Of a stretch of DNA of 64,000 bases, positions 1 to 42,776 are shown one piece after another. This DNA is from Octopus sinensis. Taxonomy: Eukaryota. The DNA lies in NCBI RefSeq assembly GCF_006345805.1, contig NC_043001.1, positions 132,494,001 to 132,558,000 of the forward strand, in the 5' to 3' direction. The first letter of the stretch is position 1; each line of letters opens with the position of its first letter. A model generated the notes under the pieces. It made no database searches. It saw only the letters and a program-made list of their open reading frames with translations, and was not told the origin of the DNA. Position numbers and translations under genes: made by a program.

Positions 1-9
1 TTCAAATAC

Positions 10-42
<33 letters not shown>

Positions 43-464
43 GTATGTATGTATGTATGTATGTATGTATGTATGCATGTATGTATTGTATATGTATATA
101 TATATGTATACTTACATATATATACAGATATATGTACGTATATATGAAGAGTTATGTATATAAAGGAAGGAACTACTTAAAAAAGGATTAAATGCATAAT
201 TTTTTTTTCTTTCTTTTATGATACAACTCCTCCATTTTTAACATTCATTCTTCAAAACAAACATAGAAAGAAATTGAATTGTTCTTTGTTTACTGTACCA
301 ACCAATTAATCATGTGTCTTATGAGACAGGAAACTTAGAAATTGTTTGCCTGTTGGTTATTCTTTAGTTATTTCCATGCCAGTCATTCAACCTACACAAT
401 GGTATACCATTCAAAATGTAAGGCATAACATATATGTAATATACACGATATATATATGTAAGAA

Positions 465-521
<57 letters not shown>

Positions 522-880
522 ATACATATGTATATATGTATGTATGTAATATGTATGTATGTATTTATGTATGTATGTATGTATGTATCTTTCTAACATA
601 CATAATAAGCTATCTACATACACACGTATATACACATGGCTGTGCATATACGTATACATATATGTATGTGTGTGTGTGTATCATGTGTCCAAATATATAT
701 GAACATGTCTATGTGTGATTGTGTATAATATATGTATGTATGTTGTGTAGATAATATATATGGTGTGTGTGTGGGTATATATATATATATGTATATATGT
801 GTTATATATATATATAATATATATATATATATATGTATATATTATATATATATGTATATGATATGTATGTATCTATATAT
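1..880. repeat. Compound (TA)n/(TATG)n/(TG)n microsatellite region
   Basis: Simple repeats directly visible; they produce the spurious YIYI/MYVC ORFs. Confidence 0.95.
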
Positions 881-1626
881 TTACATATAATCATACATAC
901 ATATGTTGTAAACATATAACGTAAATTGAATTGAAATGACAGGAGAGGTGGAATAAGTAAATAAACAGTGAAAGAAAGAAAGCAAGAGAAAGTGAGAGTC
1001 AGTGAAACAGAGAGAGAGAGTGAGAAAAAAGAGACAGACAGACAGACAGAGAGAGAGAAATGAGCGATGCAAAAATATATAGTAAGAGAGCAAGAGAGGA
1101 GAATTGATAGAAAAATTTGTAAGCTACAAGGCAGTAATCGAAAATAAACGAATATGCCTTCTTGAACTTTTCATTTAACAGAACAGAAACATAGAAATAG
1201 TTTACAAAGAACAAAGAAGTTCTTAGGTTGTTGTTAATTTTTGTTTTCTTCTTTGATGGTATTTTTTTTTTTTTTTTTTTTTTTTTCAGAATATAGTGAG
1301 ATAAGAACTGAAAATGTTACTCCACAGAGATATTTTCATTGCTAAATAGCAACGAACAAATTTTGTAACTTAATTTTTATTCATGTATTTGTCGATAAAT
1401 TTTGTTGTCAGTTCTGTTGTGTTGTGTTGTGTTGTTTTTTTCTTTTTTTTTTTTTTATTTTTTTTTTTACTTTTTTTCTATCTTTTAAAACAAATTCTAA
1501 TGTTATGCACGTGCAGATATATGTTCATAGGCACACACCACACAGACAAAAAAGCAAATACATACATTTATGCATATATATATATATATATGTATGTATA
1601 TATATATAGATATATATATACACACA

Positions 1627-1657
<31 letters not shown>

Positions 1658-1965
1658 TTTATATATATATATATATGAATGTATCTATACATATGTGTGT
1701 TTCTATGCATGTGTGTGTTTACATGTGTATCAGAGTAATATTCATACATAAATACATACATACATTTTCTCTCATATATGTGGACATCTGAATGTTATCA
1801 CATGAATAAGTTTATGTAGCAAATTAAAAGACAATCTAAACTTCTTTTTATATCATATAGTAAAAAAAAGTAACTTATTCTAAATTTGTATGTTAATATT
1901 TAATTTATCAGTATATATCATTATTTTCATGTGTGAAATTATATTTAATATTAAGAAATTTTATT

Positions 1966-4637
1966 CATATGTTCTGTGATGCATGTAACCTTTTAATCTG
2001 CAACACTAACTTCAGGAAGCCAGACAGCCACCTGATAACCTATCAATCAGATGACTCTGCTACCCAGATTGATTTCATCCTCACCAGACAGTGGGATGCA
2101 GGGCTGCTCTTAAATGCAAAGACCCTCCCAGGTGAAGAATGTACCCCCCAGCATAGACTAATCATTAGTGACTTTAGACTTGAGGCCAGAAGGATGCCAA
2201 GAAGCAGACCAATCCAGAAAAGATGGATTTGGATGCTAAAGAACCCTTCACATGGTCAGAGATTTAGGGACGTCCTCAACAATAATTTGATGAGAAGGAG
2301 GAGGAGCTACAGACCTCAGACACAGAAGGTAGCTGGAAATTCCTACGGGACAGCTTACTGAGTGCCACAGACCAAGTCTGCAGATGGTACAAAGCCCCTT
2401 CCAGACCTAGAGTAACGTCGTGGTGGAATAATACAGTAGACAAAGCCATTAGAGTAAAGAAACAGGCCTGGAAAGCCTGGAAGTGTGGGGGTAGCAGGAA
2501 ACTGTACCAGATAGCCAGAAAGGAGGCTGGGCAACAGGTATATAAGGCCAAGGGTGAAGCAGAAAAGAAGAAGTTTGCAACATGAGTACCAAAGAACTGA
2601 AGTATTTCGGATTGCAAGACAATGTGTGAGAGAAAATTGTGATGTCACAGGAGAGAAATGTGTCCGCATGGATGATGATGCACTTGATTTTAATGATTCA
2701 GAAAAGAAAGAGGCTTGGTGAAGCCATTATGAAAATAATTAAGGATATGAAGCCAGGAAAAGCGCTCCAGCCCATAAGGAAACATTGCCGAGATGCTTAA
2801 AACATCTGGTGGTGTGGCCTATGGCCTAGTCACCCGTATTGTAAACCAGATAGTTCATGATGAAGTCATACCCAATGTCTGGCATAGCAGCACCATAGTC
2901 AACTGCCAGAAGGGTAAAGGTGATGCTTTAAACAGAAATAGCTACAGGGGTATCAAACTGCTGGATCAGGTGATGAAGGTCACGGAGAGGGTCATAGCCC
3001 AACTAATTAAAGAGAGAGTCTGCTTAGATGAGATGCAGTTTCGTTTATGCAAGGTAGAAGCACCACTGATGCTATATTCCTGGTACAACAACTACAGGAG
3101 AAAAACCTAGCCAAAGATAAACCCCTATACTTGGCTTTTGTGGACTTGGAGAAAGCCTTTGACAGGGTACCCTGATCCCTTATCTGGTTGGGGATGTAGA
3201 AACTGGGGATTGACAAATGGTTAATAAGGGCTGTACAGGCCGTATACAGTGATGCCGTTAGTAAAGTTAGGGTTGGTAATGAGTATAGTGAAGAATTCTG
3301 GGTAGAAGTAGGGGTCCACCAAGGATCAGCCCTCAGCCCCCTCTTATTCATCATAGTCCTCCAGGCAATAACAGAGGAATTGAAGACAGGTTGCCCCTGG
3401 GAGCTCTAGGAGAATCACTACCAGAACTAGAGAAGAAATTTCAGGTGTGGAAGCAAGTTTAAAATCGAAGGGCCTTAGAGTCAATGTTGCAAAGACCAAA
3501 GTTCTAGTAAGTATGGTGAACACATCACACACCCCTTCAGGTAGGTGGCGCTGCTCAATCTGTAGAAAAGGCATAGGTAGAAACTCCATAAGATGTACCC
3601 AGTGTAAGCTATAGGCAAAGGAAGATTAACCAGGAAGATAGCTTTCATTTGCGGCAGATGCACAGGGGCAATAAACACCACAGATGCTCAGAAAACAGAT
3701 TCCATCACATGCCAGGGGGAGAAACTAGAAGTAGTTGATAGCTTTCACTACCTAGGTGATCAAGTCTGTAGTGGGGGGTTGGTTGCTCAGAGAGTGTTAC
3801 CACTAGAATAAGAATAGCCTGGGCAAAGTTCAGAAAGCTTCTACCCCTACTGGTGACTAAGGGCCTCTCGCTTAGAGTAAAAGGTAGATTGTATGATGCA
3901 TGTGTGCGAACTGTCATGCTTCACGGCAGTGAAACATAGGGTGCAACTGCTGAAGAATGTGTAGGCTCGAAAGAAATGTAGCTAGCATGATCTGCCAGAT
4001 GTGTAATGTCAGTGTGCACACACGACAGAGTGTAAGCACCCTGAGAGAAATGTTGGAGATAAGAAGCGTTGGATGTGGCGTGCAAGAGAATCATTTGTGT
4101 TGGTATGGTCATGTACTATGGATGGATGAGGAGGGCTGTATAAAGAAGTGCCACTCCCAATCAGTGGAAGGAATCCCGTGTAGAGAGTAGACCCAGGAAT
4201 AAATGGGATGAGGTGGTGAAGCATGACCTTCGAATGTTGGGACTCACAGAGGCAATGACAAAAGACAGAGTCCTCTGGACATATGCAGTGACTGAGAAGA
4301 GCCGGCAAATAAAGTGAGTTCACAGCTGTAACCTACACCAGTGTGGCATGACCAGCCCACTCAAAAGTACCTTAGATCATAGGGCAACATGCCATGCATG
4401 AGAAGACCAACTGAGTCAAGTACATCAAAATCTAATGGAAATTGTAGTTGTGATCTCCATGCCAGTGACACGTAAAAAGCTCCCACTACACTCACGGAGT
4501 GGTTGGCATTAGGAAGGGCATATAGCTGTAGGAACACAGCACTGCCAGATCAGACGGGAGCCTGGTGCAGCCTCCTGGCTTCCCAGACCCCAGTCGAATC
4601 ATCCAACCCATGCCAGCATGGAAAACGGACGTTAAAC

Positions 4638-4678
<41 letters not shown>

Positions 4679-4682
4679 CGAT
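1966..4682 (+). mobile_element. Decayed 5'-truncated RTE-clade LINE (APE endonuclease C-terminus + RT + 3' UTR, (GAT)n tail)
   Basis: Fragments NTNFRKPDSHLITY..QIDFIL..HRLIISD (APE), KGKGDAL..YRGIKLL, AFVDLEKAFDRV, GVHQGSALSPLLF; YADD segment deleted near 3407; many stops/frameshifts; 3' end CCATGCCAGCATGGAAAACGGACGTTAAAC(GAT)n. Confidence 0.93.
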
Positions 4683-5149
4683 GTATCATCATCATCATCA
4701 CCAACCTTTTGATGTCTACTTTTCTTTTTTCATGTTTGCATAGGTCAGACAGAATAAAACATACATGCATACATACATACATACATACAAACAAACATAC
4801 AAACAAACAAAACAAACAAACAAAATATATAATATATATACATATTATTCCAACAAGTGACGCTGTCTGACCACTTAGAATAAAGTACTGAAAGACACTT
4901 TTAGGCTGGCTAAAATATCTTCACCCATAATCATTAGTCCGACAAAATATATTGTTTTGCTTATCGCTCATTGACAACTTATTGATTATATATATATAAT
5001 ATATATAATATATTATATATATATATATATTATATATATATATATATATATACATAACATATATATTATAGATATATATATATATATATATATATATAAA
5101 TGTATATATATATATATATATTATATATATATATATTTTATATATATAT

Positions 5150-5196
<47 letters not shown>

Positions 5197-5330
5197 TTAT
5201 ATATATATCAACAATCAAGGAACGGCCATGATAGGCCATTCACCCACTAGAAATAACAGCCAAAGCTTCAACCGCAAATAAAGATTAATTCCGTAAACAG
5301 GAGAAAATTTAAAAAAACATTTACCCTGTA

Positions 5331-5436
5331 ATTTCTTGTACGATGCACCGTTTCATCTGCTGTTTAATGGTAAACTAACCTGATTAAATTAAATCAAGCC
5401 AATCTTCCATAGGCCCTCAGATCTTCAGCAAGAAAT
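5331..5436 (-). ncRNA. Type I hammerhead ribozyme with long stem II
   Basis: Minus strand: AUUUCUUG-CUGAAGA-UCUG..[long hairpin]..CAGAU-GAAA-CGGUGCAUC-GUA/CAAGAAAU. Stem I is a perfect 8 bp, stem III is near-palindromic (ACGGUGCAUCGU), and predicted cleavage is between 5339 and 5338. Confidence 0.8.
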
Positions 5437-5946
5437 AGCCAAGTCGGAACAGATATTTTCACGAGGCATTTCAAACCCTGCCAAGGTAATATCTGACCTA
5501 AAATTTTCAAATCGTCGCACTCGCGCCAAATTTATCGGCAGCAAATAAATATAAGCCGTCGATTCCATTACGGAATTAACCAAAAATTCATAATTAATCA
5601 ATATAGGGTGGCAGAAAAAATTTTGTAGAATTCTTTTTGCCACCAGCGGCCTAGTGGGAAAAAATTAAATAGTCATAGACCATTTTTAAGTTCAACATCA
5701 ACAATCAAGGAACGGCCATGATAGGCCATTCACCCACTAGAAATAACAGCCAAAGCTTCAACCGCAAATAAAGATTAATTCCGTAAACAGGAGAAAATTT
5801 AAAAAAACATTTACCCTGTAATCGACGGCTTATATTTATTTGCTGCCGATAAATTTGGCGCGAGTGCGACGATTTGAAAATTTTAGGTCAGATATTACCT
5901 GGCAGGGTTTGAAATGCCTCGTGAAAATATCTGTTCCGACTTGGCT

Positions 5947-6051
5947 ATTTCTTGCTGAGAATCTGAGGGCCTATGGAAGATTGGCTTGATTTAATTTAAT
6001 CAGGTTAGTTTACCATAAACAGCAGATGAAACGGTGCATCGTACAAGAAAT
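5947..6051 (+). ncRNA. Second copy of the same hammerhead in the inverted arm (core reads CUGAGAA)
   Basis: ATTTCTTG CTGAGAA TCTG...CAGAT GAAAC GGTGCATC GTA CAAGAAAT; the core variant may be a mutation or a sequencing error. Confidence 0.65.
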
Positions 6052-6276
6052 TACAGGGTAAATGTTTTTTTAAATTTTCTCCTGTTTACGGAATTAATCT
6101 TTATTGCGGTTTGAAGCTTTGGCTGTATTTCTAGTGGGTGAATGGCCTATCATGGCCGTTCCTTGATGTTGATGTTGAACTTAAAAAGGTCTATGACTAT
6201 TAATTTTTCCCCATAGGCCGCTGGTGGCAAAAAGAATTCTACAAAATTTTTTCTGCCCCCCCTATATTGATTAATT

Positions 6277-6311
<35 letters not shown>

Positions 6312-6745
6312 CATCATCATCATATATTTATATGAAGAAAATCATAAAGCAGAATGGAGAATTATACATCTTTAAAACTTGTTTATTTTAGTATTATTCT
6401 CATTAAATTCATGTTAGATTCCAATCTGACACGTTTTTCTGGTGCATAAGTGTCTTAATGGCCTTTGATGTAGCTGTTATGTATATTTTGTTGGTTCAGT
6501 TGCAGTACATCTAAAATTCATAATTCTCCATTCTTCTTTATGATGGTTTGATTATATACTTTGTATGTTGTATGAAATCCAATGAAGCAAACTCAAGATT
6601 TACCTATTTAATGAACTACTGTTTAATTGCTTATCGAAAACAGTTCTGGATTTTCCCTGTCATTCAATATAGTTAACCAGATCTGGATTATATCAAAATG
6701 TTAATAAGGTATTTGCCTAGATTCCAAATTCCTATTCCTTTAAAT

Positions 6746-6777
<32 letters not shown>

Positions 6778-6805
6778 TGTATGTATGTATGTATGTATGT
6801 ATATG

Positions 6806-7440
6806 TCAGGTCACTTTCGAGTGCTACTGGTAACATGTAAACCCAGTACAACCTGTTGCATGGTCGGGTCGTCGGCGACTGAAGCGGCAACCCCACCAAG
6901 CTTGCTTGGTGAGGAGGGTGTTTATTGGACACCTGCAGGATGAAAAACAAAACCCGTCAAAGGGCGGAGGAACTCTTGAGAGTCAACGGCCATCCAATAA
7001 ATGTCTTAAGGCTGTATCATGTGTGAGGACATAGAAATAATCGGACTGAATACCCGATCGCGTGGTTAAACCATTGGGAGTGAAGGGCTCCTAGCCTTTG
7101 TTAGGCATCCTTCTAGGAGAAGGTAACTCAGGTAACTGGGATACCGATGATGTTGACTTGTTACCGATGATGTTGACTTGTTCTTCTTTTCGGATTATGG
7201 CTGCTGTTGCTTAGTGAGTGGGATTGATTCAGTGCACAGCCTTTCCTCACTTAAAAAAAATCTTCTTGCTCAGGCATTGCACGATAACAACATTGTTCAT
7301 GATTGTTTATAGTGCTGTGAGTCTGAACTGAATGGCTGGCTGTAGCCTCAAAAAGCAAATAAAAGTCACATTCGATCACAGCACCAATAACAGTTGAGCT
7401 TCGTGCAATGGCCATACTTGATAATGAGGGGGCAGCCATC
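6806..7440 (+). mobile_element. Probable non-autonomous RTE-derived element embedded in (TATG)n
   Basis: GC-richer island flanked by (TATG)n on both sides; contains GGCATCCTTCTAGGAGAAGGTAACTC, resembling RTE 5' leaders, and a 20-bp tandem duplication at ~7143-7182. Confidence 0.5.
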
Positions 7441-7777
7441 ATGTATGTATGTATGTATACCCCCCCACACACACACACACATTCTTATACAAGAATGTTG
7501 TTGACAGTGACTTCAATGGGTTCAATCAGCTAAGCCCCTATCAGACTGCAATGCATTGGAACTTAGTTGGCCAAAACTTTGTAGTTACAGTCAACTGCAT
7601 TCTTGTATAAGAATAATAAACTTGTACTCTACAACAGAATAGAGTAACCCATCAAATTAATGTAAAATTGTTTCTATTATAATAGAACATAAAAACAAAC
7701 ATTAATACACACACACACACACATTTAATTCTGATACATCAAATATGGTAGTTTTCTGTCAGAATATTATTTTTTTT

Positions 7778-7814
7778 TTATGGGTAGATTTGGTAGACAG
7801 AGACTGCAAGAAGT

Positions 7815-7850
<36 letters not shown>

Positions 7851-8085
7851 TGTGTGCCTTTGAGTTTGTGTTTGTTTTCCACCAATGCATGACAGCTGGT
7901 GTTGGTTTGTTTACATCTCCATAACTTAGTGATTCAGCAAAAAGAGTTTGACAGAACTTAGTGGTTCAGAAAAAAGAGTTTGGCTTAAAAGGGATAAATA
8001 AGAGGTCAATTTGTTTGACTAAACCCATCAAGGTTGTGCCCCAGCAAGGCCACAGTGTAATGACTGAAACAAATAAAAGATAGGA
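7778..8085 (+). mobile_element. Degraded copy of SINE family A (3' part)
   Basis: Similar to 16534-16912 (GATTTGGTAGAC..TGACTGAAACAA). Confidence 0.65.
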
Positions 8086-8452
8086 GATGTTAAAGTATTA
8101 CAGAACTAGTGTTGCTCAATGTATATTTTGAAAAATTATTTTTCAAAAAATAATGATATAGATAAAAAAAAGCAATAAGATAAATGTTGTGCAAGTAAAC
8201 AAAATAATAATCATACTGCATAAATACATAAATATAAAATGCAGACCACATAATAATTAAAGAGGTTTTAGTTCTGATAGCTAGTTATTTGTATCCATTA
8301 AACCAGCTATAAATTGGCTGAAAACTGGTAAGCATGGGAGCTACACCAGGTTCCAATCTGATTTGGCATGGTTTCTAGAGCTGGATGCCCTTCCTAATGC
8401 CAACCACTCCAAAAATGTAGAGGGTGCCTTTTACATGCCACAGGGGCCTCTA

Positions 8453-8612
8453 TACAGTGTTATCTTAAGGCATGGACACTGGATAATTGTCTGGAAGCCC
8501 GGGAGCCCAAAGTTAACTTATATATACTGTGGACTGCTGTCAGTATATAAATGTAGAGGGCTCCCATTGCATTGTTTTGCCTGGTGTTTTATAATGCTGT
8601 TAAGACAACCTT
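8453..8612. mobile_element. Possible MITE remnant
   Basis: Imperfect terminal inverted repeats GTTATCTTAAGGCAT / ATGCTGTTAAGACAAC; internal GGGAGCCC / GGGCTCCC and TATATACTG / CAGTATATA arms. Confidence 0.4.
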
Positions 8613-9234
8613 ACTTCTATATGGTCACAAGACTTATTACAAATAGTAATCAAGGATTAATTTTATTACCAGCTACTACATTAAATATAATTACATTGGA
8701 TTAAGAAGTCTTACATGTACACATGCATACATGACATGCCAGTCATACCTGGGACACCTGTCAGCTCTGATGTTGTTGACCTGTAGTTAAACTATAACAG
8801 TAACAACAATTTATTATATAACAGCTAGGGTGATTTACATAATACAAATGTTGTTACCACTACTGACAATATAGAATATCACTTATAGTTCAAAACAGGG
8901 AACAATATGAAACAAGTGTCAGAAAAATTGTTGTTGTTATGGTGGTGGTAGTTGAGGTCATAGTTGTTTCACATCAAGTCGCTTCTGATTAAATATATCT
9001 GATTATATATATATGTCTGTTTAAAGAAATTCCAGCATTAAAAATCCTGTCCTCCCTATTTCAAGAATAGTCTATTGAGAATTACCTAATCTATGTGTCC
9101 TTCTATTTTTAGATAACAAAGTTTAATTCAGTGGAGATTTGGCTGCTATTTCTTGAAGGTTGAATGATCATGTTAGGCTTCCACATTGGCTCATGCATGA
9201 TGAGTGGTCCAGTATGGGTAAAATGATTTATGCA

Positions 9235-9408
9235 TTAACCATTTAGCATTCAGATTAGTCTTGTAGCTCCAAGATCTTTTTGATGTGACTGTTTATTTTG
9301 ACAATAATATTGTAGGGTAGAAGTGAGAGGCCAAATCTAACCTGTTTGAACATAAAACAGGCAAAATATTTTGGCCAGATATTGCCAGTTTAAATACTAA
9401 AGGATTAA
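9235..9408 (-). mobile_element. Degraded TTAA-flanked MITE (same family as 43266-43491)
   Basis: TTAACC..TTTAGCAT start, TTTAAATACTAAAGGATTAA end; internal similarity to the reverse complement of 43266-43491. Confidence 0.6.
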
Positions 9409-9788
9409 CTTGATTGCATAAGTTCTAGAAAAGCCAGAGGCAAAATAGTCAGTCATAATTTGATAGCTGAGCTAGGTTAACATACAGGAAAGGCAGGACG
9501 CAATTCAACTGTGAAAGTGGAGGTGTGTTAAACACATCATCAGAGATGATGCACACAGGATACGAGATAGCTGTACAATAAGAAGGGGCAATCAATAATG
9601 AGTGGAAAAATAAGTGTCATTTGCTGACAGTGGGACATGGCTGTAGCAGAGAAAGACTGAGGAAGCTGAGGAAGGATTTGGTAATTCAAAAGCTCAAGAT
9701 ATTGGACTATATGGGATGAGAGAGTAGGTTAGATTTTTACTGTACTGCAGACCTATTCATCTCATGCTAATATGGAAAATGATTCTGG

Positions 9789-9820
<32 letters not shown>

Positions 9821-12401
9821 GCAACAGCAGCAGTGGCAGTGATGAGAATTGTGATGGTGACAATGACAACAACAGTGACATGAAAAGTTGGTGGGGGTAG
9901 TAGAAATAGTAGAGTGCAGTGCAAAATGTTGTTACATCCTTTTTTTGTTCCGAGTGTTCGAATTCCATTGGGAGATCAACTTTGCCTTTTATCCCTCCCT
10001 ATCGATAAAATGTCTATCTGTCATGTTTTGAAGTTGATTCAATTGACTTTGAGTTTCCCTTTAAAAAAAAAAAATCTATGAATTTGTGCCACTGTGAAGA
10101 AATCAATTCTCTTTAACACTATCATGTCAGTGAAGCCTATGGCTTTAGTTTTGCTTGTGACACATTCCTAACAATGATGCCAATTAATTCCCTCCAAGCT
10201 TTTTTTTTCACTATAATTTAGACCTGATAGTATAAAAACAAAGTTTGATTTGATTTTTTTCCTTTTGTCTGCTGGAATATGAAGAAGACATAGCTAGTAG
10301 GAGGTGTCAATGATATCCACATACCAACTTATCAATTCTAGTATTGTTTTTTACTTTTTAATTTATGTTCTAGACCTGGGTAGGGAGTAAATCAAAGTCT
10401 CTACAGTAATAACCAGTGAATGACACGCCTCCTGAAATGGACAGTAACCTATCACAGCTTTGAACCTGTATTTCTGAGCCATCAAACTGTATTTTCAATC
10501 ATCCAATAGTTCACAACACCTAACACCAGTCATTCAAAATCTTTATTTTATTTTGTACTTAATTTTTTTTTATCGATATTGGATGGGTGGAGGAATTGAT
10601 TACTCAAAGATAGAAAAAAAAAAACCAATTAAGGGGCAAAAATCTATATGATAATTGAGTTTTACACTTAGTTATTATAAGCTTGTCGAATTACTCCTGC
10701 TAGTGTGTATCAACACCATCATTCTCATATCCAATTACCAAACTCTAGGTACTATTATTGAAATGTTTGCCTGCTTACTTGCTTGACTGAGTGTCTACTA
10801 TAGTATCACAGGGTTGACTGCAGAAACTAGACTGGTTTAAATGTCTGTGGTGAGTATTGGATATGAACCATATTGACTTGGCTAGCTGCAACTCATTCCT
10901 TAAAAGATAAGACTGCAATTATACAAAAGCCATTTTCTTTTCAAGTTTGACATTGATCACCAATTAATAAAATATTAATTAATCATACCATCTTTCGTTG
11001 ATCACTAATTTGGTTACTAAATCAAACATGGTTCATTTCATTTAAATTTAATAATTTTATTTTATTTCATTTTTTTTTTCAATTAGTCATTGTATTCAGT
11101 AAAGTACATTACAAAATACATCAGTTCATCTAAATTAGTTAATTTAAATCAATATAGGAAGTTGACAGACAGCACAAAGTCAGGTAAATATCAAAAATTT
11201 TATAAAAAGTAGTAGGTATTTATTGTGCTGTTAATCTCTCTTTTGTTTTATAATAATTACACTATACATCTACATTTTGCACTACTTTTCATTTTGTATA
11301 TATTCATTCTTTGTTTTCAGACAAAAATTTTTACACCATTAAGACTAGGATTGAACCCATAAACATGCATTACAACAACTATTATAACTGTGCCACATTT
11401 TTGTTCAATGTGAGTTTTCTTTTCAGCATAATTATACACAACACTTTTAGACGTGTAATATGTCTCATTCAAACCACTTCAAAAAGACATAGTCTTCTAG
11501 TCCCTTCACTGAAGTGGTGATGAAAGAATCACCAAATAAATGTACAAGATTGTGTGTAGGAAAATAGGAATGGTTAGAAATTAAATAATCCAAAGACTTC
11601 ATCCACATGAAAACAACAGAAAAATTTTAATAAACAGAGCACTAAAAAAAGCCAACTTTTTTCTCCTCAACAACAAATCTCAGACAAATAGTTATTAAAA
11701 TTTTCTTAAATTTATTTACATCATGAGAAGCATATTGCATATTACATAAGGTATTAGTCTTTCTTAATAACAAACTTCTCTATTGCATTATACACACTAT
11801 TTTTCAATATCAGTTTTGTCAAACTTTGGCATTAATTCACTGCATCAAAAAGCCTTTTCATTGGTTATCTTATACCAATATTTTTTCTTGTTGAAAATCT
11901 ATTTCAAATGTTTTTAATATATTTTATTGCTTTTTCTGTGTTTTCTACTATTTCACTGAAACTTATACTTGAAAAAAAAAGTCTTATACTGACTCTTTGG
12001 GTGAGTATTAATATATTTTGAAAAAATTGAAAGTTAACTGGTCGTATCCAATTCAAGCTACATCATGTGTGTCTACACATTATAACAGCTTGAAGTATTT
12101 TTTATACTTAAATTCCGATTTCTTATTATATTTTTTACATTCATATTAGGACTTACAAAAACCAATATAATAAATGAATTTATTTTTCTTTTGAATCTGC
12201 ATTGTTGTGGCTTCTATCATTCTATGCTTCAAGAAAACTAATCGACAACTTACAAACTGGTTCTTCATTAAATAATTCTTAAATCAACATAGTACTTGCA
12301 TAAATCACAGACTTATGTTCATGGTTTTTACATAAATTGCATATGAATTACATCATACCTATATATAAATAATTATGCACTAACTCTACACACACACACA
12401 C

Positions 12402-12463
<62 letters not shown>

Positions 12464-13294
12464 AGGGTGTATCAATAAAGTGCTTATTTAATTGGCACCT
12501 GCATAAAATATTTGCTCCTTTATATAGTATTGACACAAAACACTGAATTTCTTTTATGGCACTCAATTTTTTTTTAAATCATCTAAATGGTACCAAAATA
12601 ACAATCAATACTCATGCTTTAATTTTTTTTTTTTAACAGCTAGTCAAAAATTGACTTTGATCTGTAAACCTCCTTACCCACAAATCTTTTCTCATTCCAC
12701 ACTTCAGACAGGAGATAACCTTGTGTGAAATGACCCCATTGTTGCTGATAGGAGTATTTCTTCAGTGCCAAAGTTATTTCTTTGTTCACCGAAGCACAAA
12801 GCACAAACAGAATCCTTCAAAAATCTAAGGCAGTGATTCATTTAGAAGCTCAGTAGATTACATCATTTTTAATTTGTATTAGAAGCCAAAAAAGAAAGAA
12901 AAAATAGTATTTTTTTATGGATTTCAAATATGCAAAATTCAGCCAAATTTTCTCACATCTCCTTTGAAATTTTAAATTATTTAAAATCCATGTTTTTGAT
13001 GCTTTTAAAAATATTAATTTGATTGAATTCTAATAGTGATTTAAAGACTCTTGTTCTTTGTTACACTCTGGCTGTGTTTTTAGATCTAGTCGAATACCAA
13101 TTAGTATGTGTGTGAGAGGAATGAGGGAGCTGTAGTACAATCCATACCACCGGCGAAGAATATTGGCATTAATTGGTAGCTATGGTAATCAGGAATAGCA
13201 CCAGCTTCAAAACCTATTGCTCAGCACTGATTTAGACATTTTCTTAATCCATTGGGCATTATAAATATATATATATATATATGCATACATATAC

Positions 13295-13372
<78 letters not shown>

Positions 13373-13756
13373 TGCATATACATATATATGTGTATATATA
13401 TATGTATACAAACACACACATGTACACACACATATTCACACACACATACACACACAAAGAAAGAAGGAAAGACATGCTGTTATTCCTTCCTCTTACTTTT
13501 CTTTGTGTTGCAAGAGGAGTTAAATTCAGAGATTTAATTTATGCAAAGTCCTTGCTGTAATTTACATCGCTGCATCTAATGGGGATTTAATTCTTACTTT
13601 CCCCTTCTATTCATCCTGTTGTCAATCAGATAGCTCCGGCTATTGTTTCTCCAAACCATTCTTTTCTTTACTATATGTCCAGCCTTTTATTTTGTTCAGC
13701 ATTTGATTTTTATTCATATCAGCATATGTGCTACAAAACCATTTTCTCCTTTCACA

Positions 13757-13793
<37 letters not shown>

Positions 13794-15390
13794 GTTCTTT
13801 TCCTAATTCATGGGATCAAGAACACTACTTCGTGCTTTTTAAGATTTTTTTTTAATATTTATTTATTAGTGTATTTTCTTCAAAATTTAGCTTAATTTTG
13901 TTTTCATTTTTCAGTAAAAAATTACCACCACACACCACCAACACTGCCAACAAAACAAGAAGAAATAAAAAAAGAAAAAGATATTTAGATGAGTTTCAAT
14001 TTACTATATTATCATGTATCACAAACATTCACTTTATGATTATGTCCTTTAATTATCTTGCGGGCAACTAATTTCAAAAAGACCTTTAATGCTCTGATGA
14101 AGTTGAATTAATGTGCAATTCCATACCATAGGGGAGTATATCTACAAAAGCAGACCTATCCAAAAATAGCCTTAAATAATCAAGCAATCATATTTTTTAA
14201 ACAAACTGCAATAATGTGTTTTTAATCAGATATATTTGTCAAAATAAATGTTTTAGCATAACTTTACACATTGATGTTCAAAAGAATTTCTAACAATGTA
14301 TTTTATTCCATTTTAATTCATTATAATTTTAGTTGAAATAAAAACACAATTCACTTCATTTCTTTTTGCATTTCAATAAAATTTATGCACAGAATACAAT
14401 CCCAGATACCATTTCATGACATGCAAATCTTAATATATGTCCATATCAGTATATTACATGTGTATGTACTTATACATATGTATATAAATGTATGAAATAC
14501 AGACATATATACATATGTATAAGTATATATGTCTGTCACTTATTTTATGGGTGTGCATGTATATGTGTCAATATGTGCATATATATATATATATGTTTGC
14601 TTTGAGGTTTATTAAAATTTTTCTAATGGAGTGCAAGCTGGTCACTAACAAAGTGACAAAAACTTGTTTTTATGCATGTATTATGTAAGTATTTATTTAT
14701 GTATGTATACATTGATTGCTCTTTTTCTGACTTTATTTAATGAACTGTGGCCATGCTGTATATTAAGTCACTATTTCACTCTTCGTAGCCCCAAAATTTA
14801 CATTCTTCAATAAGCTACTGTTACCTATCTTATGTAATTAACGTAGCTTCATTTCAAATATAAACAAATAAAGTATCAGGATCCGTAGAAAACCAAATTA
14901 AACACACAAAAGAAGACATTTAATCAGTTACTCCCTTGTTCTAAATTTATATATTCACCATAGTTAAATGTCCATTTCTTTCCCCAGGTGACAATAAAAT
15001 AACTACCAGTCATGCATGGAGGTTGTTTATACACAACCCAAATCTACAAGTACATGTCCACTCTTCAAATTTTAAAAATAAATCGATATATCTTAACTTA
15101 TATTTCTATTTCAGGAAAACTTTGTATTTCATCAATCTTGTATGGTGAATTGGCAGAATTTAGAGTGTCAAGCAAGATGCTTCTTAGTATCCAATTCAAT
15201 TTTTGCATTCTGATAATAATGCCTGCAACAATACTGATGCCAAGCATTGGTATCGTGGTGAAGGGAAACTTGCATGCCTGGGTAACTGCCAGCCTTTTTT
15301 ACAAAATAAATAAATCTTGTGCAAGCCTACACATACATATGCAAATGCATAGTCTATCGTGGCCAATGAGGGACCTATATACATAAATAA

Positions 15391-15500
<110 letters not shown>

Positions 15501-15523
15501 TGTAATATTAATATAAATAAGCA

Positions 15524-15740
15524 AAGGCAGTGAACTGGCAGAATTGTTACCATGCTGGGAAAATGTTTAGTACCATTTCGTCTGTCTTTACATACTGAGT
15601 TCAAATTCCACTGAGGTCGACTTTGCCTTTCATCCTCTCAGGGTGGATAAAATAAGTATCAGTTGATCACTGGGGTTGATGTAAACAACTTACTCCTCCC
15701 CAACAAATTGCTGGCCTTATGCCAAAATTTGAAAGCAATA
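15524..15740 (+). mobile_element. tRNA-derived SINE family B, diverged
   Basis: GAACTGGCAGAATTGTTA..GAGTTCAAATTCC..GGTCGACTTTGCCTTTCATCCT core. Confidence 0.8.
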
Positions 15741-15920
15741 TTAATGCTAAACAGATCAGAAATACATCTGCTGCTGTGTAGGATACCAGCCAGTTTTCCA
15801 GTAACATTTCCAAACAGCCTAATTCTGATTCCAAGAAGATTGACAGAGTGAGGAAAGTATGGCTAATGCTCAGTTCAAATGAACTATGAATTATGCGAAA
15901 TTAATACCTAAGAATGCCTT

Positions 15921-16299
15921 TCTTTTTCTTTTTTCTTTTTTACTTGTTTCAGTCATTTGACCGCGGCCATGCTGGAGCACCGCCTTTAGTCGAGCAAATT
16001 GACCCCGGGACTTATTCTTTGTAAGCCCAGTACTTATTCTATCGGTCTCTTTTTGCTGAACCGCTAAGTGACAGGGATGTAAACACACCAGCATCGGTTG
16101 TCAAGCAATGCTAGGGGGACAAACACAAACACACACACATATATATATAGATATATACGACAGGCTTCTTTCAGTTTCCATCTACCAAATCCACTCACAA
16201 GGCATTGGTTGGCCCGGGGCTATAGCAGAAGACACTTGCCTAAGATGCCACGCATCTACTTGCCTAAGATGCCAAGCTACTTACCACACAGCCACTCCT
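15921..16299 (-). mobile_element. tRNA-derived SINE family A
   Basis: Minus-strand head AGGAGTGGCTGTGTGGTAAGTAGCTTG; internal (TG/TA) tract; ACAAGTAAAA tail; B-box region replaced by a 17-bp local duplication. Confidence 0.9.
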
Positions 16300-16533
16300 T
16301 ACCTCTGCAACAAATCTATTTCTCCTTACAATGAGACAATCCTTAATTGAGGGTCCTCAATTAGAAACTGGGTCCTCATTTATTCCATAAATTCTTTTCA
16401 ATAATTTATCATTTTTTTTCTTTTTCTTTCATTTTTTTTTTGTCATATTGGCTAGCTGGAAGTTTAGCAAAGAGTGTGTTACTGAGAAAATGTTAGAACA
16501 TTTGTTCTAAAACAAATTTGTTTATTTCTTCTT

Positions 16534-16912
16534 CTTGCTAACCAACCACATGGTTCCGGGTTCAGTCCCACTGCGTGACATCTTGGGCAAGTGTCTTCTG
16601 CTATAGCCCCGGGCCGACCAATGCCTTGTGAGTGGATTTGGTAGACGGAAACTGAAAGAAGCCTGTCGTATATATGTATATATATATATGTGTGTATTTG
16701 TGTGTCTGTGTTTGTCCCCCTAGCATTGCTTGACAACCGATGCTGGTGTGTTTACGTCCCCGTCACTTAGCGGTTCGGCAAAAGAGACCAATAGAATAAG
16801 TACTGGGCTTACAAAGAATAAGTCCCGGGGTCGATTTGCTCGACTAAAGGCAGTGCTCCAGCATGGCCGCAGTCAAATGACTGAAACAAGTAAAAGAGTA
16901 AAGAGTAAAGAG
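16534..16912 (+). mobile_element. tRNA-derived SINE family A (5'-clipped)
   Basis: GGTTCCGGGTTCAGTCCCA B-box, CTTGGGCAAGTGTCTTC CORE-like segment, (AAAGAGT)n tail. Confidence 0.9.
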
Positions 16913-18097
16913 TTATGTTCGTAATTTCTACATTTGCATCTCCAATCAGAATTTCCAGGCACTTTTTTTTTCCCTTACATAAGAAATAAAAATAATTTTT
17001 TTTTTTTTTAAATCTGTCATTAAAAATATAATGAAGAAATCTATAATGAAAGATTAATAACCTTTTTCTGAAACAGTAACTACATTAGCAACAATAACGA
17101 TAACAGTAATAAAACACAACAACAACAATTACGATGATGATGATGATGTTGATGATGATGATGATGATGATGAATAAAATCCATATATGTGAAATGACAA
17201 GTATATGGGGAGATGTAGAATGCGAGTGTGAGAGATGGGGCTGAGGGGGAAAAGAGTGTAAATAAGCAAAGCTAATAAGCTGAGTTCAATTAAAGAGGCT
17301 GATAATACCGCTTCTGTCACCTACAGGGAAAAGCAAGACCGTTATTGAAACCATGTACAGGTTTCCATTGATTAGTTAATATCATTTACAAACCATAACA
17401 CTTCTAATAAAATTTCACACACAACTCTTACTTTTGTTTCTGCCCATGGTGCAGAGATTTGAGAGCATTTCTGCAACAATTGAATCTCATATTGCTTTTG
17501 TTCATACTTATAAATCAATATTTATTTTGCCAAAGAACAAACTGTGAGTTGTATCAAGTTTTTCAATGATAATAAAAGTAAAAAGGATAAATTCCGAGAG
17601 CAAATAGCGTAAGCATGGAATAAATTTGCTGTAAATATAATCAAAGTTTTTAATGATATAATCCTAAAGCAAAAGTAGGTACTTGTAATATATAAAGCTC
17701 TGCATGGAAAAGGCTATTTACTTAAGCAGTAAGAACGTTGAGTAAAGAAAGGAAGGTATATATAACTACATATTTATATAAAACTATTAAAGGGCTCGAT
17801 AAGAGATGAAATCTTCATATCAAATATATCTAGCTATTTAAGGAAATTGCTTTTCATATAAGAATACTTGAAATTTATCAAACGCAAGAAGTTTACAACT
17901 CTGCAATATACTTGGTCAGTAATATACAAATGAATAAGCAAAAATTCTTTCTGAATTAAATGCAAGATGAAGAATATCTTGCTTGACACCCATTTGGCTT
18001 TAGGTTCAACCCCATTGTGTGGCACTTTGACAAGTGCCCTCTATTATAGCCTCAGATCAAGAAGGCCTTCTGAGTGGATATATATAGCCATTCATAC

Positions 18098-18478
18098 ATC
18101 ATCCTCATCCTCCTCATCATCGTTTAATGTCTGTTTTCCATGCTGGCATGGGTTGGACGGTTTGACAGGAGCTGACCTGCTGAAGTTGCTGTTCAGGCTC
18201 CATGTCTGTTTTGGCATGGTTTCTGTGACTGGATGCCCTTCCTAGCAGCAACCACCTTACTGGGTGTACTGGGTGCTTTTATGCAGCATCAGCATGGATG
18301 CTTTTGATGTGGGCACTTATGAGCTTGCAAGATTAGGGATGCTCAACTGAAGAGGATAGCAAGGGATGAGCCTGTATGCGAGATAACCATGCTTTTACTT
18401 AGCTTGATATGTCTTTTCAGGCACAGCAAACTGCCAGGAGCTCAGTCCCCTGTCATATCCACTGTGACTCCCTACGTT
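18098..18478 (-). mobile_element. RTE LINE 3' UTR fragment
   Basis: (CAT)n-like tract followed by GTTTAATGTCTGTTTTCCATGCTGGCATGGGTTGGACGG, the reverse complement of the RTE 3' end. Confidence 0.75.
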
Positions 18479-18947
18479 TATAATAATGAAATTATTGTAT
18501 ACAGTGCTCAGGTGCACCACAACTTGTCCCTCATGTGATGCACCATTTTACATAATTTAGGTACATCATTCGGTTCTGTAAATGCTGCAGTGGCAACCGG
18601 TGCAGAAGGTTTTCTCATATGGGCATTTTGTCCATGCTGGGATGATTTGAACAGTTTGACAAGCCACAGGGCTATGTTGGACTCCAATATCAGTTTTTGC
18701 ATGGTTTCTATGGCTTGATGCACTTCCTAGCACCAACTGCTTTGCAGTGCATATCCAGTGCATTTTTTGTGACACCGACACTAACATGGTCATCAAGTAA
18801 GTTGCAAAGCAATGAAAAGAAAGGAAAAAGCACACCTACATGAATGGGAGTGCATCGGAGAGAGGAGAAGGTAGCATTATGGCAGGTATTGAGGGCTAAA
18901 TGCAATAGATAGACAAGCACAGATGTCTTGCTATAGAGGAAATACCT

Positions 18948-19174
18948 ATTTCTTTACTACCCACAAGGGGCTAAACACAGAGGGGACAAACAAGGAGAGA
19001 CAAACGGATTAAGTCGATTATATCGACCCCAGTGCATAACTGGTACTTAATTTAGCGACCCCGAAAGGATGAAAGGCAAAGTCGACCTCGGCGGAACTTG
19101 AACTCAGAACGTAATGGCAGACGAAATACGGCTACACATTTCGCCCGGCATGCTAACGATTCTGCCAGCTCACC
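18948..19174 (-). mobile_element. tRNA-derived SINE family B with 18-bp target-site duplication
   Basis: Full head-to-tail copy; GCTATAGAGGAAATACCT at 18930-18947 and 19175-19192. The core GCCTTTCATCCTTTCGGGGTCG resembles conserved metazoan SINE central domains. Confidence 0.92.
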
Positions 19175-20745
19175 GCTATAGAGGAAATACCTGGCACCCT
19201 TCTGCATTCTATGATGGTAGATGAGAGTTGCTACAAAGATGATAAAGATGCTGGTGACAGAGTGCTAGGATGTACCTTCAAGATACAAGAAGATGAATAA
19301 AAAGGAGAATATAGTCAGTGGATTAGCAGGAAAGGAAAGGGTTTGTCCAGTGTTTTTATTTCTAATACATTTAAAGTATATGATTTTTGTGCAGTTATAT
19401 TTCATTATCTCATCTTTTATTTGAGGAGATATCTTGACTGACATAATTCAAAATTATGAAAGGTTTTGATGAAAGGAATCTCACTGCAGATTACACCTAA
19501 TACACAAGATTATAGACAGACACATAATGTAAAACTATATTATAGATTTGATATTTAATTAATACATACATCCCACTCATCTGAAATGCACATGCAATAT
19601 TGTAGAAACACATACACAAACTCATATAAATGATTATTCTTGGTCATCAATAAAAAATTTGTATTCCAAAGTGACATCAAAAAAAAAAAAAAACCCAAGA
19701 TGATTACCATCTATAAAATTAGAAAATTTCCTAATTTTTTTTCTAATTTAGCGGATCCAAAAGAGAGAATCTGTTAAATTGTTAAATGCTATTTAAGCAA
19801 TTACTAATTACCAATTGCTATGAGTCATCCTCTAAAGATTTCATGGAAGATTTCCTACTACTATGACTAAGCAAGTTTAGATTGGTCTGGTGCCGTAGTC
19901 AAGCTTGCAAGCTCTAGCTTTGAACACCTTACGTAAGTTGCATAGAAGCACATTGACAAAGTTATAACCAGTTAGCTGATGTCATTGTATTTGGTTAATG
20001 AACTGTAATATCATCTCTCTCACTTTTCATAATAATCTCCCAAGGATCTTCTCCAGTTCCTTTCATTTTCAACCATACACATCTCATTTTAGAATTATTT
20101 CTCTAGCCAACAAAGACCAACTAATGGAAATTTAAAATAAAAAAGCAAAACACCAGCATTAACACCCCATTTAAATCATTTCTATTATGCTATTACCACC
20201 TAAACAATATTATGTAACAAGAAATGGTTACTTAAAATTGAGGCATGAGATGTTCCTTTGTTTTATTTCTAAAAGAATATAATAAAAAAAGAATTGTGAG
20301 AAATAGACACTCTTTACAAATACAGCATGAGTAAAATAGTTGTTCTTTCTCTTTACAACTGTATATTTATATATTTATATATATTTTGATAATTATACGA
20401 AGTCAAATATCTTTGTAAAAGTTTAATGACAGGTAGTATATAGGTAGTTATTTAGCTATTTCTCTTAATACCAGTTAACAGTAAAATGAAGATGTATAAG
20501 TTGTAATAGTTATTTAGCCAAGGTTCTATCCAATTAGACACTCATAAAACCAACAGTTTTCCAGCTTTGCCCATCCAATTTTAGAGGAAACATTTATCCC
20601 CACTTAAATGTGGCTGTTCTGTGAGAACAAACTATACTGTGGTAGATATCATGAGAGAAACTCTTATTTTGGCTTTAGGTGTAAAATGAACTCTTGTTTA
20701 TGTGGCTAGTAGAGAGCTAGATCCCTTCCACCTCCAGTACCAAGA

Positions 20746-27222: not shown

Positions 27223-28867
27223 ACATATAAACATATATCTTTCTTGTGTATATATATAAACATATATCTTTCTTGTGTATATATATAAACATATATCTTT
27301 CTTGTGAATATATATAAACATATATCTTTCTTGTGTATATATAAACATATATCTTTCTTGTGTATATATAAACATATATATTTCTTGTGTATATATAAAC
27401 ATATATCTTTCTTGTGTATATATATAAACATATATCTTTCTTGTGTATATATATAAACATATATCTTTCTTGTGTATATATATAAACATATATCTTTCTT
27501 GTGTATATATAAACATATATCTTTCTTGTGAATATATATAACATATATCTTTCTTGTGTATATAAACATATATCTTTCTTGTGTATATATAAACATATAT
27601 CTTTCTTGTGATATATATAAACATATATCTTTCTTGTGTATATATAAACATATCTTTCTTGTGTATATAAACATATATTTTCTTGTGTATATATATAAAC
27701 ATATATCTTTCTTGTGTATATATAAACATATATATCTTTCTTGTGTATATAAAACATATATCTTTCTTGGTATATATAAACATATATCTTTCTTGTGTTA
27801 TATAAACATATATCTTTCTTGTGAATATATATAAACATACATCTTTCTTGTGTATATATAACATATATCTTTCTTGTGTATATAAACATATATCTTTCTT
27901 GTGTATATATAAACATATATCTTTCTTGTGAATATATATAAACATACATCTTTCTTGTGTATATATAAAATATATCTTTCTTGTGTATATATAAACATAT
28001 ATCTTTCTTGTGTATATATAAACATATATCTTTCTTGTGTATATATAAACAATATATCTTTCTTTCTTGTGTATAATATATAAACATATATCTTTCTTGT
28101 GTTATATAAACATATATCTTTCTTGTGTATATATAAACATATATCTTTCTTGTGTATATATATAAACATATATCTTTCTTGTGTATATATAAACATATAT
28201 CTTTCTTGTGTATATATATAAACATATATCTTTCTTGTGTATATATAAACATAAGTCTTTCTTGTGTATATATAAACATATATCTTTCTTGTGTATATAT
28301 AAACATATATCTTTCTTGTGTATATATAAACATATATCTTTCTTGTGTATATATAAACATATATCTTTCTTGTGTATATATAAACATATATCTTTCTTGT
28401 GTATATATAAACATATATCTTTCTTGTGTATATATAAACATATATCTTTCTTGTGTATATATATAAACATATATCTTTCTTGTGTATATATAAACATATA
28501 TCTTTCTTGTGTATATATAAACATATATCTTTCTTGTGAATATATATAAACATATATCTTTCTTGTGTATATATAAACATATATCTTTCTTGTGTATATA
28601 TAAACATATATCTTTCTTGTGTATATATAAACATATATCTTTCTTGTGTATATATAAACATATATCTTTCTTGTGTATATATAAATATATATCTTTCATG
28701 TGTATATATAAACATATATCTTTCTTGTGTATATATAAACATATATCTTTCATGTGTATATATAAACATATATCTTTCTTGTGTATATATAAACATATAT
28801 CTTTCATGTGTATATATAAACATATATCTTTCTTGTGTATATATAAACATATGTCTTTCTTGTGTAT
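27223..28867. repeat. 27-bp minisatellite (TATATATAAACATATATCTTTCTTGTG)n, roughly 60 copies
   Basis: Direct tandem repetition, with unit-length variation in the TA run. Confidence 0.97.
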
Positions 28868-29618
28868 TCCTTTTCTTTGTGAACAGAAGACAAATGCATG
28901 TTCTTATTCAAGTTTCAATTCAGTTTGGAACCATCCTGAGAGAGACTATGTACACCTCCTTCTGACCACACAGAACTACATAGTTAATGGCTTTATAAAC
29001 CAATAAAATTTGATAATATCAGCGAATTAGAGATTTGAATTTGCATAATATTTTTAGTACTTGCTCTGCAAGTTAATTCAATTAAATATTAGAATTAATC
29101 ATTATTCAGGTGAGATGCTCATATGCTAACTAAGATACTCTCATGGAATATGACTAAATGAAGTTTATTTTTCAACACGGTCCCCCCATCCCACCTCCAC
29201 TGCAGCCCACACACTACTCCCATCGGTGTTGCAGTGCTTGGATCCCATTAGGGAAGAAGCTTTCATCCTGTTGGTCAAAAAAGTCATCCATAGCAAAATG
29301 CGATGTCATCATCACTGCAATACAGGTTCCCAGCCAAGTGTTTTTTCATGTTGGGGAACAGATGATTGTCAGATGAGGCCAAATCAAGATAATAGGGAGG
29401 TTGAGGAATCAGTTCAAAGCTACAGTCATGCACAGCAGCCTTTGAAAGCAAGACTTGTATGATGGAGCATTGTCCTAATGAAAAAAAAACCCCTTTCATA
29501 AGTTTCCTTGTGTGTTTCATTTTGATAGCCTTTTGTAACTGACTTAGGAAATTGGTATAGTACTCTCCATTGATTGTTTGGCTTTTTTGAAGACAATCAA
29601 TATACACAATTTGTACTA

Positions 29619-30006
29619 GAAGCACTCCGTCGGTTACGACGATGAGGGTTCCGGTTGATCCGATCAACAGAACAGCCTGCTCGTGAAATTAACGTGTAAG
29701 TAGCTGAGCACTCCACAGACACATGCACCCTTAATGTAGTTCTCGGGGATGTAGTTCTCGGGCATGACACAGAGAGTGACAAGGCCGGCCCTTTGAAATA
29801 CAGGTACAACAGAAACAGGAAGTAACAGTAAGAGAAAGATGTGGTGAAAGAGTACAGCAGGGATCACCACCATCCCTGCCGGAGCATCGTGGAGCTTTTA
29901 GGTGTTTTCGCTCAATAAACACTCACAACGCCCGGTCTGGGAATCGAAACCGCGATCCTACGACCGCGAGTCCGCTGCCCTAACCACTGGGCCATTGCGC
30001 CTCCAC
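29619..30006 (-). mobile_element. tRNA-derived SINE family C with 14-bp TSD
   Basis: Head GGAGGCGCAATGGCCCAGTGGTTAGGGCAGCGG..GGTTTCGATTCCC; TSD CACAATTYGTACTA at 29605-29618 and 30007-30020. Confidence 0.9.
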
Positions 30007-42040: not shown

Positions 42041-42272
42041 AGGCGGCGAGCTGGCAGAAACGTTAGCACGCCGGGCAAAATGCGTAGCCATATTTCGTCT
42101 GCCAATACGTTCTGAGTTCAAATTCCGCCGAGGTCGACTTTGCCTTTCATCCTTTCAGGGTCGATAAATTAAGTACCAGTTACGCACTGGGGTCGATGTA
42201 ATCGACTTAATCCGTTTGTCTGTCCTTGTTTGTCCTCTCTGTGTTTAGCCCCTTGTGGGTAGTAAAGAAATA
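42041..42272 (+). mobile_element. SINE family B inserted in the Tc1 transposase
   Basis: Full copy GGCGGCGAGCTGGCAGAAACG...GTAGTAAAGAAATA. Confidence 0.92.
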
Positions 42273-42776
42273 GATATTGCATTTCTGAGACAGATGGCAG
42301 AGATAGGGTTTGGAGAAGAAGGGGTGAATGTCCTGCCAATGGCTGCATGGTGAAGAGAGACTCATGGGGAGGACAGAGCATCATGATATGGTGTGGGATT
42401 GCACTCAACCAGAAACTTGGACTGGTGGTCCTCCAAAACATCAGCCGAGGCCGGGGCAATGGAGTAACTGCTGCTTGTGTCATCGGAATCACATGTTCCA
42501 ACATGACAATGCCCATGCCCATACTGGTTGCCAACAGACTTCCTCCAACAGCACAATATTCAGAAACTGTCATGGCCTGTCCTAAGTCTGGACTTGAACC
42601 CCATGGAGCACTCATGGGACGAAATCCAAAGAAGGCTAAATGACATCCATCCAAGGCTGACAACTGCATCACAACTCGCTACATGTTTTAACAGAGTGTG
42701 GGCTGCCATCCCTATGTCTTTCATCAATCGTTTGGTGCATTCAATGTACAGATGATGCCTGGTCGTAATCAATGCT

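Follow-up and report, generated by a model that had tools for sequence, protein, structure and literature searches.

The window, a stretch of 64,000 nt of the Octopus sinensis genome (NC_043001.1, 132,494,001 to 132,558,000), lies on C5, in a genome of 2.72 Gb. It contains an insertion (5207-6278) that is built of a 490-bp unit and adjoins (TA)n at both outer ends. The unit (5207-5696, minus strand) has a GC content of 36.5% and lacks a long open frame on either strand. When it is doubled, all six frames are closed, and no open frame for a reverse transcriptase with GIY-YIG is present. The original prediction described a non-coding unit repeated about 1.25 times head-to-tail and followed by a circularly permuted inverted arm, and this is what the locus holds: 1.26 units in the left arm, the last 126 bp (5697-5822) copying 5207-5332 with zero mismatches, and an inverted arm at 5820-6278 with 97% identity and 10 single-base gaps. 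Positions in the unit are numbered in RNA sense, as q = 5699 minus the window position. The features of the locus are:

4987-5206, no strand: (TA)n target tract, left flank (sequence, with a TRF array at 4987-5208)
5207-5822, minus strand: left arm, 1.26 units; its RNA-sense 3' end is fixed site A (5207) and its 5' end is q367, 6 nt past the predicted cut
5207-5696, minus strand: non-coding monomer, 490 bp (genome matches at 91-100%)
5697-5822, minus strand: exact 126-bp head-to-tail repeat of 5207-5332
5331-5436, minus strand: predicted type I hammerhead motif, one A short of the family form (fold, family alignment, covariation)
5590-5780, minus strand: conserved structured domain holding sites A and B, predicted as a multi-branch junction and a hairpin (consensus fold, 18 copies)
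5820-5822, no strand: head-to-head junction of both arms, overlap 3 nt
5820-6278, plus strand: inverted arm on the right, with 0.94 unit, running from a 5' end at q135 to a 3' end at fixed site B (6278)
5947-6051, plus strand: second hammerhead motif, predicted cut 6043/6044; core CUGAGA, one base short
6174-6278, plus strand: 'tail' from site A to site B, measuring 107 nt in the family and found at just one end of the insertion
6279-6311, no strand: (TA)n target tract, right flank (sequence and TRF)

The insertion has one hammerhead per strand, since the additional 0.26 unit begins 6 nt past the cut site. Thus, the locus cannot excise a unit-length RNA alone, and is likely a dead-end product. 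Both flanks of such insertions are (TA)n, which would mask a target-site duplication (>4 bp in non-LTR retrozymes, when present).

The predicted hammerhead of the minus strand comprises stem I (AUUUCUUG/CAAGAAAU, 5436-5429 / 5338-5331), the core CUGAAGA...GAAA (5428-5422, with GAAA at 5354-5351), a near-palindromic stem III (CGGUGCAUCG, 5350-5341) and the triplet GUA; cleavage is predicted at 5339/5338 (q360/361). At minimum energy, 5331-5436 folds into a three-way junction (z = -3.9; 0/200 shuffles as good). The stem I, core and triplet pattern named in the original prediction was found, but both copies at the locus lack one base relative to the family form: the left copy is missing one A at ~5421 and the right copy reads CUGAGA-AUCUG. 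Neither copy as assembled thus has the full family core, through decay or assembly error. Stem II, which had been called unusually long, reaches 68 nt in the family form. The proposed check against Rfam hammerhead models went against the prediction, with no match in 1-20000 (E <= 1) or in 5205-6280 (E <= 10); the long stem II is the likely cause.

Among 51 distinct family copies (first 30 loci), the whole motif is identical in 33, CAGAU-GAAAC...GUA is present in 48 and CUGAAGA-AUCUG in 46; the copies thus keep the core, contrary to what had been set out as the mark of a plain satellite. In an alignment of 27 copies across subfamilies, two-sided changes occur in 8/23 hammerhead pairs (stem I, 3/5; base of stem II, 3/3; stem III, 2/4), and the distal part of stem II has one-sided variation only. 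Paired cells amount to 93%, compared with 26-43% in slid controls, and the covariation score, which is inflated by relatedness among the copies, was reached by 0/500 shuffles. Because the search patterns preset the core letters of the sister copies, the independent evidence is confined to the stems. A chance hammerhead is excluded because of this covariation and because the exact 20-nt stem III motif has 457 genome matches, against 0 for the control. The prediction of a type I hammerhead on the minus strand is upheld at the level of sequence, by a core and a predicted three-way junction with open stem I, whose stems I-III are kept by compensatory change. Stem III is palindromic or nearly so in the family, a form linked to dimeric hammerheads in the accessible text of PMC3088659 and PMC7229834.

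The unit is a young dispersed family, and the insertion in the window is one of several hundred recent copies. The original prediction made further genomic copies a test, and they are plentiful: besides the stem III motifs, we identified 195 matches to the unit at 91-100% identity in the 40 of 1100 candidate places that were scored. Exact junctions of the A end with (TA) number 484 and those of the B end 766, with 0 in either control. Among the youngest copies, 189 units have a median substitution divergence of 1%. Dispersed loci with at least two tandem hammerheads occur in the family, in arrays of up to >9 units. Unit length and both ends are preserved in older subfamilies of ~70% identity, and every subfamily retains the closed 490-nt unit. 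There are at least three such older sisters (loci L031-L060 and L131-L150), with CCGAUGA or CCGACGA cores (U4C) and GUC triplets; the CCGANGA-core pattern has 162 places against 1 in the control, and a few of the matches listed are due to chance. U4C lowers hammerhead activity in vitro, according to the accessible part of PMC3088659.

The 10 single-base gaps in the right arm could be taken as a sign of an assembly or long-read artefact made of fold-back chimeric reads. We consider the chance of this next to negligible, given that hundreds of loci have the same two ends with a junction of their own, and that the unit and its head-to-tail joint are present in independent public runs. Assembled contigs from four runs guessed to be RNA cover 29/29 unit bins, and three of these runs have a contig across the head-to-tail joint, which is also present in DNA. 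On the unique DNA of a control stretch, X1, X3 and X5 have zero depth compared with ~40 in X15, and other repeats in that stretch are as deep as the unit or far deeper.

Insertion anatomy was compared in two sets. The first comprises 54 insertions, of which 24 come from the best unit matches and the others are all but one of the 31 on the list for C1 and C2; L024/L025 and L030, whose arrays exceed the extracted stretch, are excluded, and overlapping duplicates were counted once. The second consists of 40 further C1 loci, taken in order by end pattern. Site A was defined as q490-q4 and site B as q102-116, 107 nt apart. Head-to-head arms are present in 41/54 insertions of the first set; in 37 of the 41, one arm ends at A and the other at B, and the other four are damaged or end elsewhere. 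In the second set 26/31 junctions pair A with B, giving 63/72 when pooled, with no A+A or B+B. In the first set (TA)n adjoins 90/95 3' ends. The 5' ends are variable, and arm length ranges from 0.1 to >9.4 units. Both sites lie inside a structure that the subfamilies share; the consensus fold of 18 copies has 33 pairs, of which only 3 show two-sided change. As modelled, this domain (5590-5780) likely acts as a recognition element for the reverse transcriptase.

Fixed 3' ends, a one-sided tail, variable 5' ends, an inverted 5' copy and a microsatellite target form the pattern of a non-autonomous Penelope-like element. Insertions of Penelope-like elements are described in the accessible parts of 10.1101/2021.04.23.441226 and PMC3846280 as partly tandem, with a 5'-truncated copy in inverted orientation, a tail at one end and (TA)n as the target. 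In the one in vitro system (PMC11167929), the enzyme cuts and extends both strands of the DNA, and two internal start sites delimit the tail. As far as these sources and PMC11167929 describe them, the endonuclease-bearing elements (Neptune, Penelope/Poseidon, Naiad) resemble the 490-nt family in their partial tandems, in the inverted 5'-truncated copy at the 5' side, in the one-end tail, in the (TA)n or AT-rich target and in a hammerhead upstream of two start sites. The family differs in having no coding frame, a tail of 107 nt rather than 30-40 nt (10.1101/2021.04.23.441226, in part) and a hammerhead with all three stems, stem II being long, rather than the minimal hammerhead of Penelope-like elements. 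Chlamys elements such as MRC1 are likewise non-autonomous; they are green-algal, have 3' sequence in common with an autonomous partner and come without a described hammerhead in the accessible text of 10.1101/2021.04.23.441226. Penelope-type machinery thus very probably mobilises the 490-nt family, and the mobilisation by Penelope-like reverse transcriptases named in the original prediction gains support from insertion anatomy, through the A+B junctions and the (TA)n at the 3' ends.

Tandem units are also what an ordinary satellite or a DNA-level mobile repeat (spread by unequal exchange, or MITE- or Helitron-like) would leave, with the hammerhead incidental. Inverted arms can resemble terminal inverted repeats, and Rfam gave no match. 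Such an origin is nevertheless very improbable in view of the compensatory changes in all three stems, the contrast of variable 5' with fixed 3' ends, the one-sided tail, the strict A/B pairing and the surplus of ends where the RNA would be cut (below).

The genome encodes Penelope-like elements with open frames of ~770-850 codons that have similarity to reverse transcriptase and GIY-YIG, both with Pfam scores below the curated cut-offs. By their CxxxxCxxC linker we take these to be Neptune-like. The coding elements also end in (TA)n. There are 29,017 and 8,657 Penelope-like candidates, from which about six families were sampled. Several young autonomous families have open frames and (TA)n ends (L084 and relatives, in the 3' UTR; L169, L171, L176, L177 and L182). 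In one young family the tail is 35 nt long, and ~140 nt before the end of the element lies what looks by eye like a minimal hammerhead, its core reading CCGAAGA; another has a UUGAA(A/G)A...GAAA-CCGG-UA motif.

The unit might be the pseudo-LTR (pLTR) of an autonomous Penelope-like element outside the sample, with the copies being its 5'-truncated ends. The geometry is that of a pLTR (ribozyme, ~130 nt, end A, tail, end B), and the sampling covers about six of many families. We nevertheless find this decidedly improbable: past site B, an arm enters the next unit or stops, reaching an open frame in 0/94 loci; (TA)n separates unit copies from adjoining coding elements; and the closed 490-nt unit is kept in all subfamilies. 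The unit sequence had no match in 50 Penelope-like loci (30 + 20) from about six of the many families. A further 20 B-end loci without an exact A end contained no pLTR and are older copies of the 490-nt unit.

L061 was considered as a coding element whose pLTR would be the unit and was rejected because a (TA)n tract separates the two, as also in L181 and L202. At these three loci, unit copies lie in (TA)n tracts directly beside coding Penelope-like elements, pointing to a shared target.

Haplotypes bear on the template from which insertions were copied. At 17 sites, haplotype distance is 0.017 within an arm, 0.021 between arms and 0.246 between loci. Of 138 private variants, 109 occur in a single unit, 26 in some units and 3 in all covering units on both arms; 20 of the 26 come from one chimeric locus, L076. 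In L068 and L120 private variants fill 6/6 units on both arms. Uniform long arrays with fixed private variants imply a bottleneck of one monomer, then repetition, and a circle is in our inference the simplest source of both. The comparison of in-register variants between arms, multimer against circle, covers few sites. In L076 (3719-5190), the arms differ in haplotype (91% and 98% identity to the unit of the window), and this locus is a template switch between two RNAs.

Ends near the predicted cut carry a second signal. In the first set, 5' ends within q361-376 number 13/96, against 3.1 expected (best-window scan P = 0.003), with 4/56 in its C1 and C2 part (p = 0.11). The independent second set has 8/78, against 2.5 expected (p = 0.004; P = 0.006 under a length-aware null). 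Overall, ~12% of 5' ends stop just past the predicted cut and ~88% elsewhere; the left arm in the window (q367) is such a cut-adjacent end. About one in eight 5' ends thus resembles run-off from an RNA whose own 5' end was made by the ribozyme, indirect evidence of in vivo cleavage and of some linear templates. In L068 (4050-5867) and L206 (372-1324), arms are rebuilt from repeated segments that start just past the cut, with three successive q366 starts in the former and two q362 starts in the latter; this looks like run-off followed by re-priming.

Our preferred reading, with a probability of roughly 0.6, is that the insertion in the window is an integrated copy of a non-LTR retrozyme, placed in (TA)n by a Penelope-like reverse transcriptase/GIY-YIG protein from a circular 490-nt RNA. 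Multi-unit loci would be transcribed, and the hammerheads, perhaps as dimers via the palindromic stem III, would cut out monomers that a host ligase would circularise. A Penelope-type protein would then nick both (TA)n strands and start two cDNAs on a single RNA, one from site A and one from site B, and each cDNA would run for 0.1 to >9 laps. The far ends of the two cDNAs would be joined, in many cases through microhomology. Linear cleaved RNA may serve as some of the templates, and on these the cDNA would run off at the cut.

The same element and a Penelope-type enzyme could also work with no circle, the arrays being copies of linear read-through multimers that are partly cleaved, or products of end-to-end template jumps on linear monomers. 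The clustering of 5' ends just past the cut, the successive starts in L068 and L206 and the chimera of two haplotypes in L076 favour such templates, as does the finding that unprocessed RNA is the main substrate in vitro, where cleavage is dispensable for insertion (PMC11167929). We think it unlikely, however, that linear templates suffice: 5' truncation would shorten arrays in each round, yet arms reach 8 to >9 uniform units, internal junctions are clean at the cut (48/51 identical), and private variants fill all units.

A narrower form of the circular reading is tentative, and we rate it below even odds. Each insertion might be the footprint of a Penelope-type reverse transcriptase dimer on one 490-nt ribozyme circle, one subunit being primed per nicked (TA)n strand, with starts at A and B, up to at least 9 laps and the hammerhead cut as a stop. 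If so, the family would be a minimal natural substrate showing the way in which retrozyme circles integrate as well as the origin of Penelope tails and inverted ends, and the 68-nt stem II would be a new hammerhead form missed by standard models. Counted against a circular Penelope-type model are the ends at the cut and L076, which point to linear templates, the stem I pairing probability of ~0.25 in the predicted circle, U4C in the older subfamilies, the lack of shared sequence in the sampled Penelope-like families, the length of the tail and the p = 0.11 of the cut-site excess in C1 and C2. From the literature, insertion without cleavage in vitro (PMC11167929) also counts against it, as do 8/9 frog retrozyme dimers that did not cleave, in the accessible part of 10.64898/2026.07.22.740005.

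On sequence features, the 490-nt family would be a new member of the animal non-LTR retrozymes, every sequence-level feature being present; the kind named in the original prediction is supported by a short non-coding tandem unit with GC <50% and one predicted type I hammerhead per unit. In the accessible text of PMC7229834 and 10.64898/2026.07.22.740005, these retrozymes likewise have non-coding AT-rich tandem units, a type I hammerhead, many dispersed copies, a short stem III with a palindromic loop and a genome with Penelope-like elements. Unit lengths given there are 150-450 nt (PMC7229834) and 51-972 nt (10.64898/2026.07.22.740005), compared with 490 nt here. The 68-nt stem II sets the family apart from the animal non-LTR retrozymes those texts cover. 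They contain no description of head-to-head arms, two fixed ends or (TA)n targeting for retrozymes, and 'inverted' occurs 0 times in the main text of PMC7229834. Frog retrozymes often match pLTRs, as far as 10.64898/2026.07.22.740005 is accessible, unlike the 490-nt unit, which has no pLTR sequence match among the sampled families. Circles and cleavage have been shown for coral, mussel and axolotl retrozymes (PMC7229834, in part), whereas those of the 490-nt family are predictions. A literature search, with most subscription journals outside its reach, found no description of a cephalopod retrozyme.

The integration of retrozymes and the tandem, inverted and tailed insertions of Penelope-like elements are open questions in the papers cited here, and the mobilisation of the former by the latter has so far rested on co-occurrence and pLTR similarity. 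The family adds hundreds of young insertions that bear the Penelope footprint and are protein-free, and in which three rules can be counted: every insertion has a single A end and a single B end, its units share one haplotype, and stops occur at the ribozyme cut. The third rule points to cleaved RNA as a template in vivo, which was not seen in the one in vitro system (PMC11167929). Reconstitution could start directly from a 490-nt RNA whose start sites are mapped, and the long stem II points to a class of animal hammerheads missed by Rfam searches.

Elsewhere in the window, a 27-bp minisatellite (60 copies, 93% matches) occupies 27225-28867. Broken reverse-transcriptase-like frames, presumably of LINE type, lie at 1897-3405 and 57271-58155, and transposase-like fragments at 29284-29688 and 42266-42643, which we take to resemble Tc1/mariner transposases.
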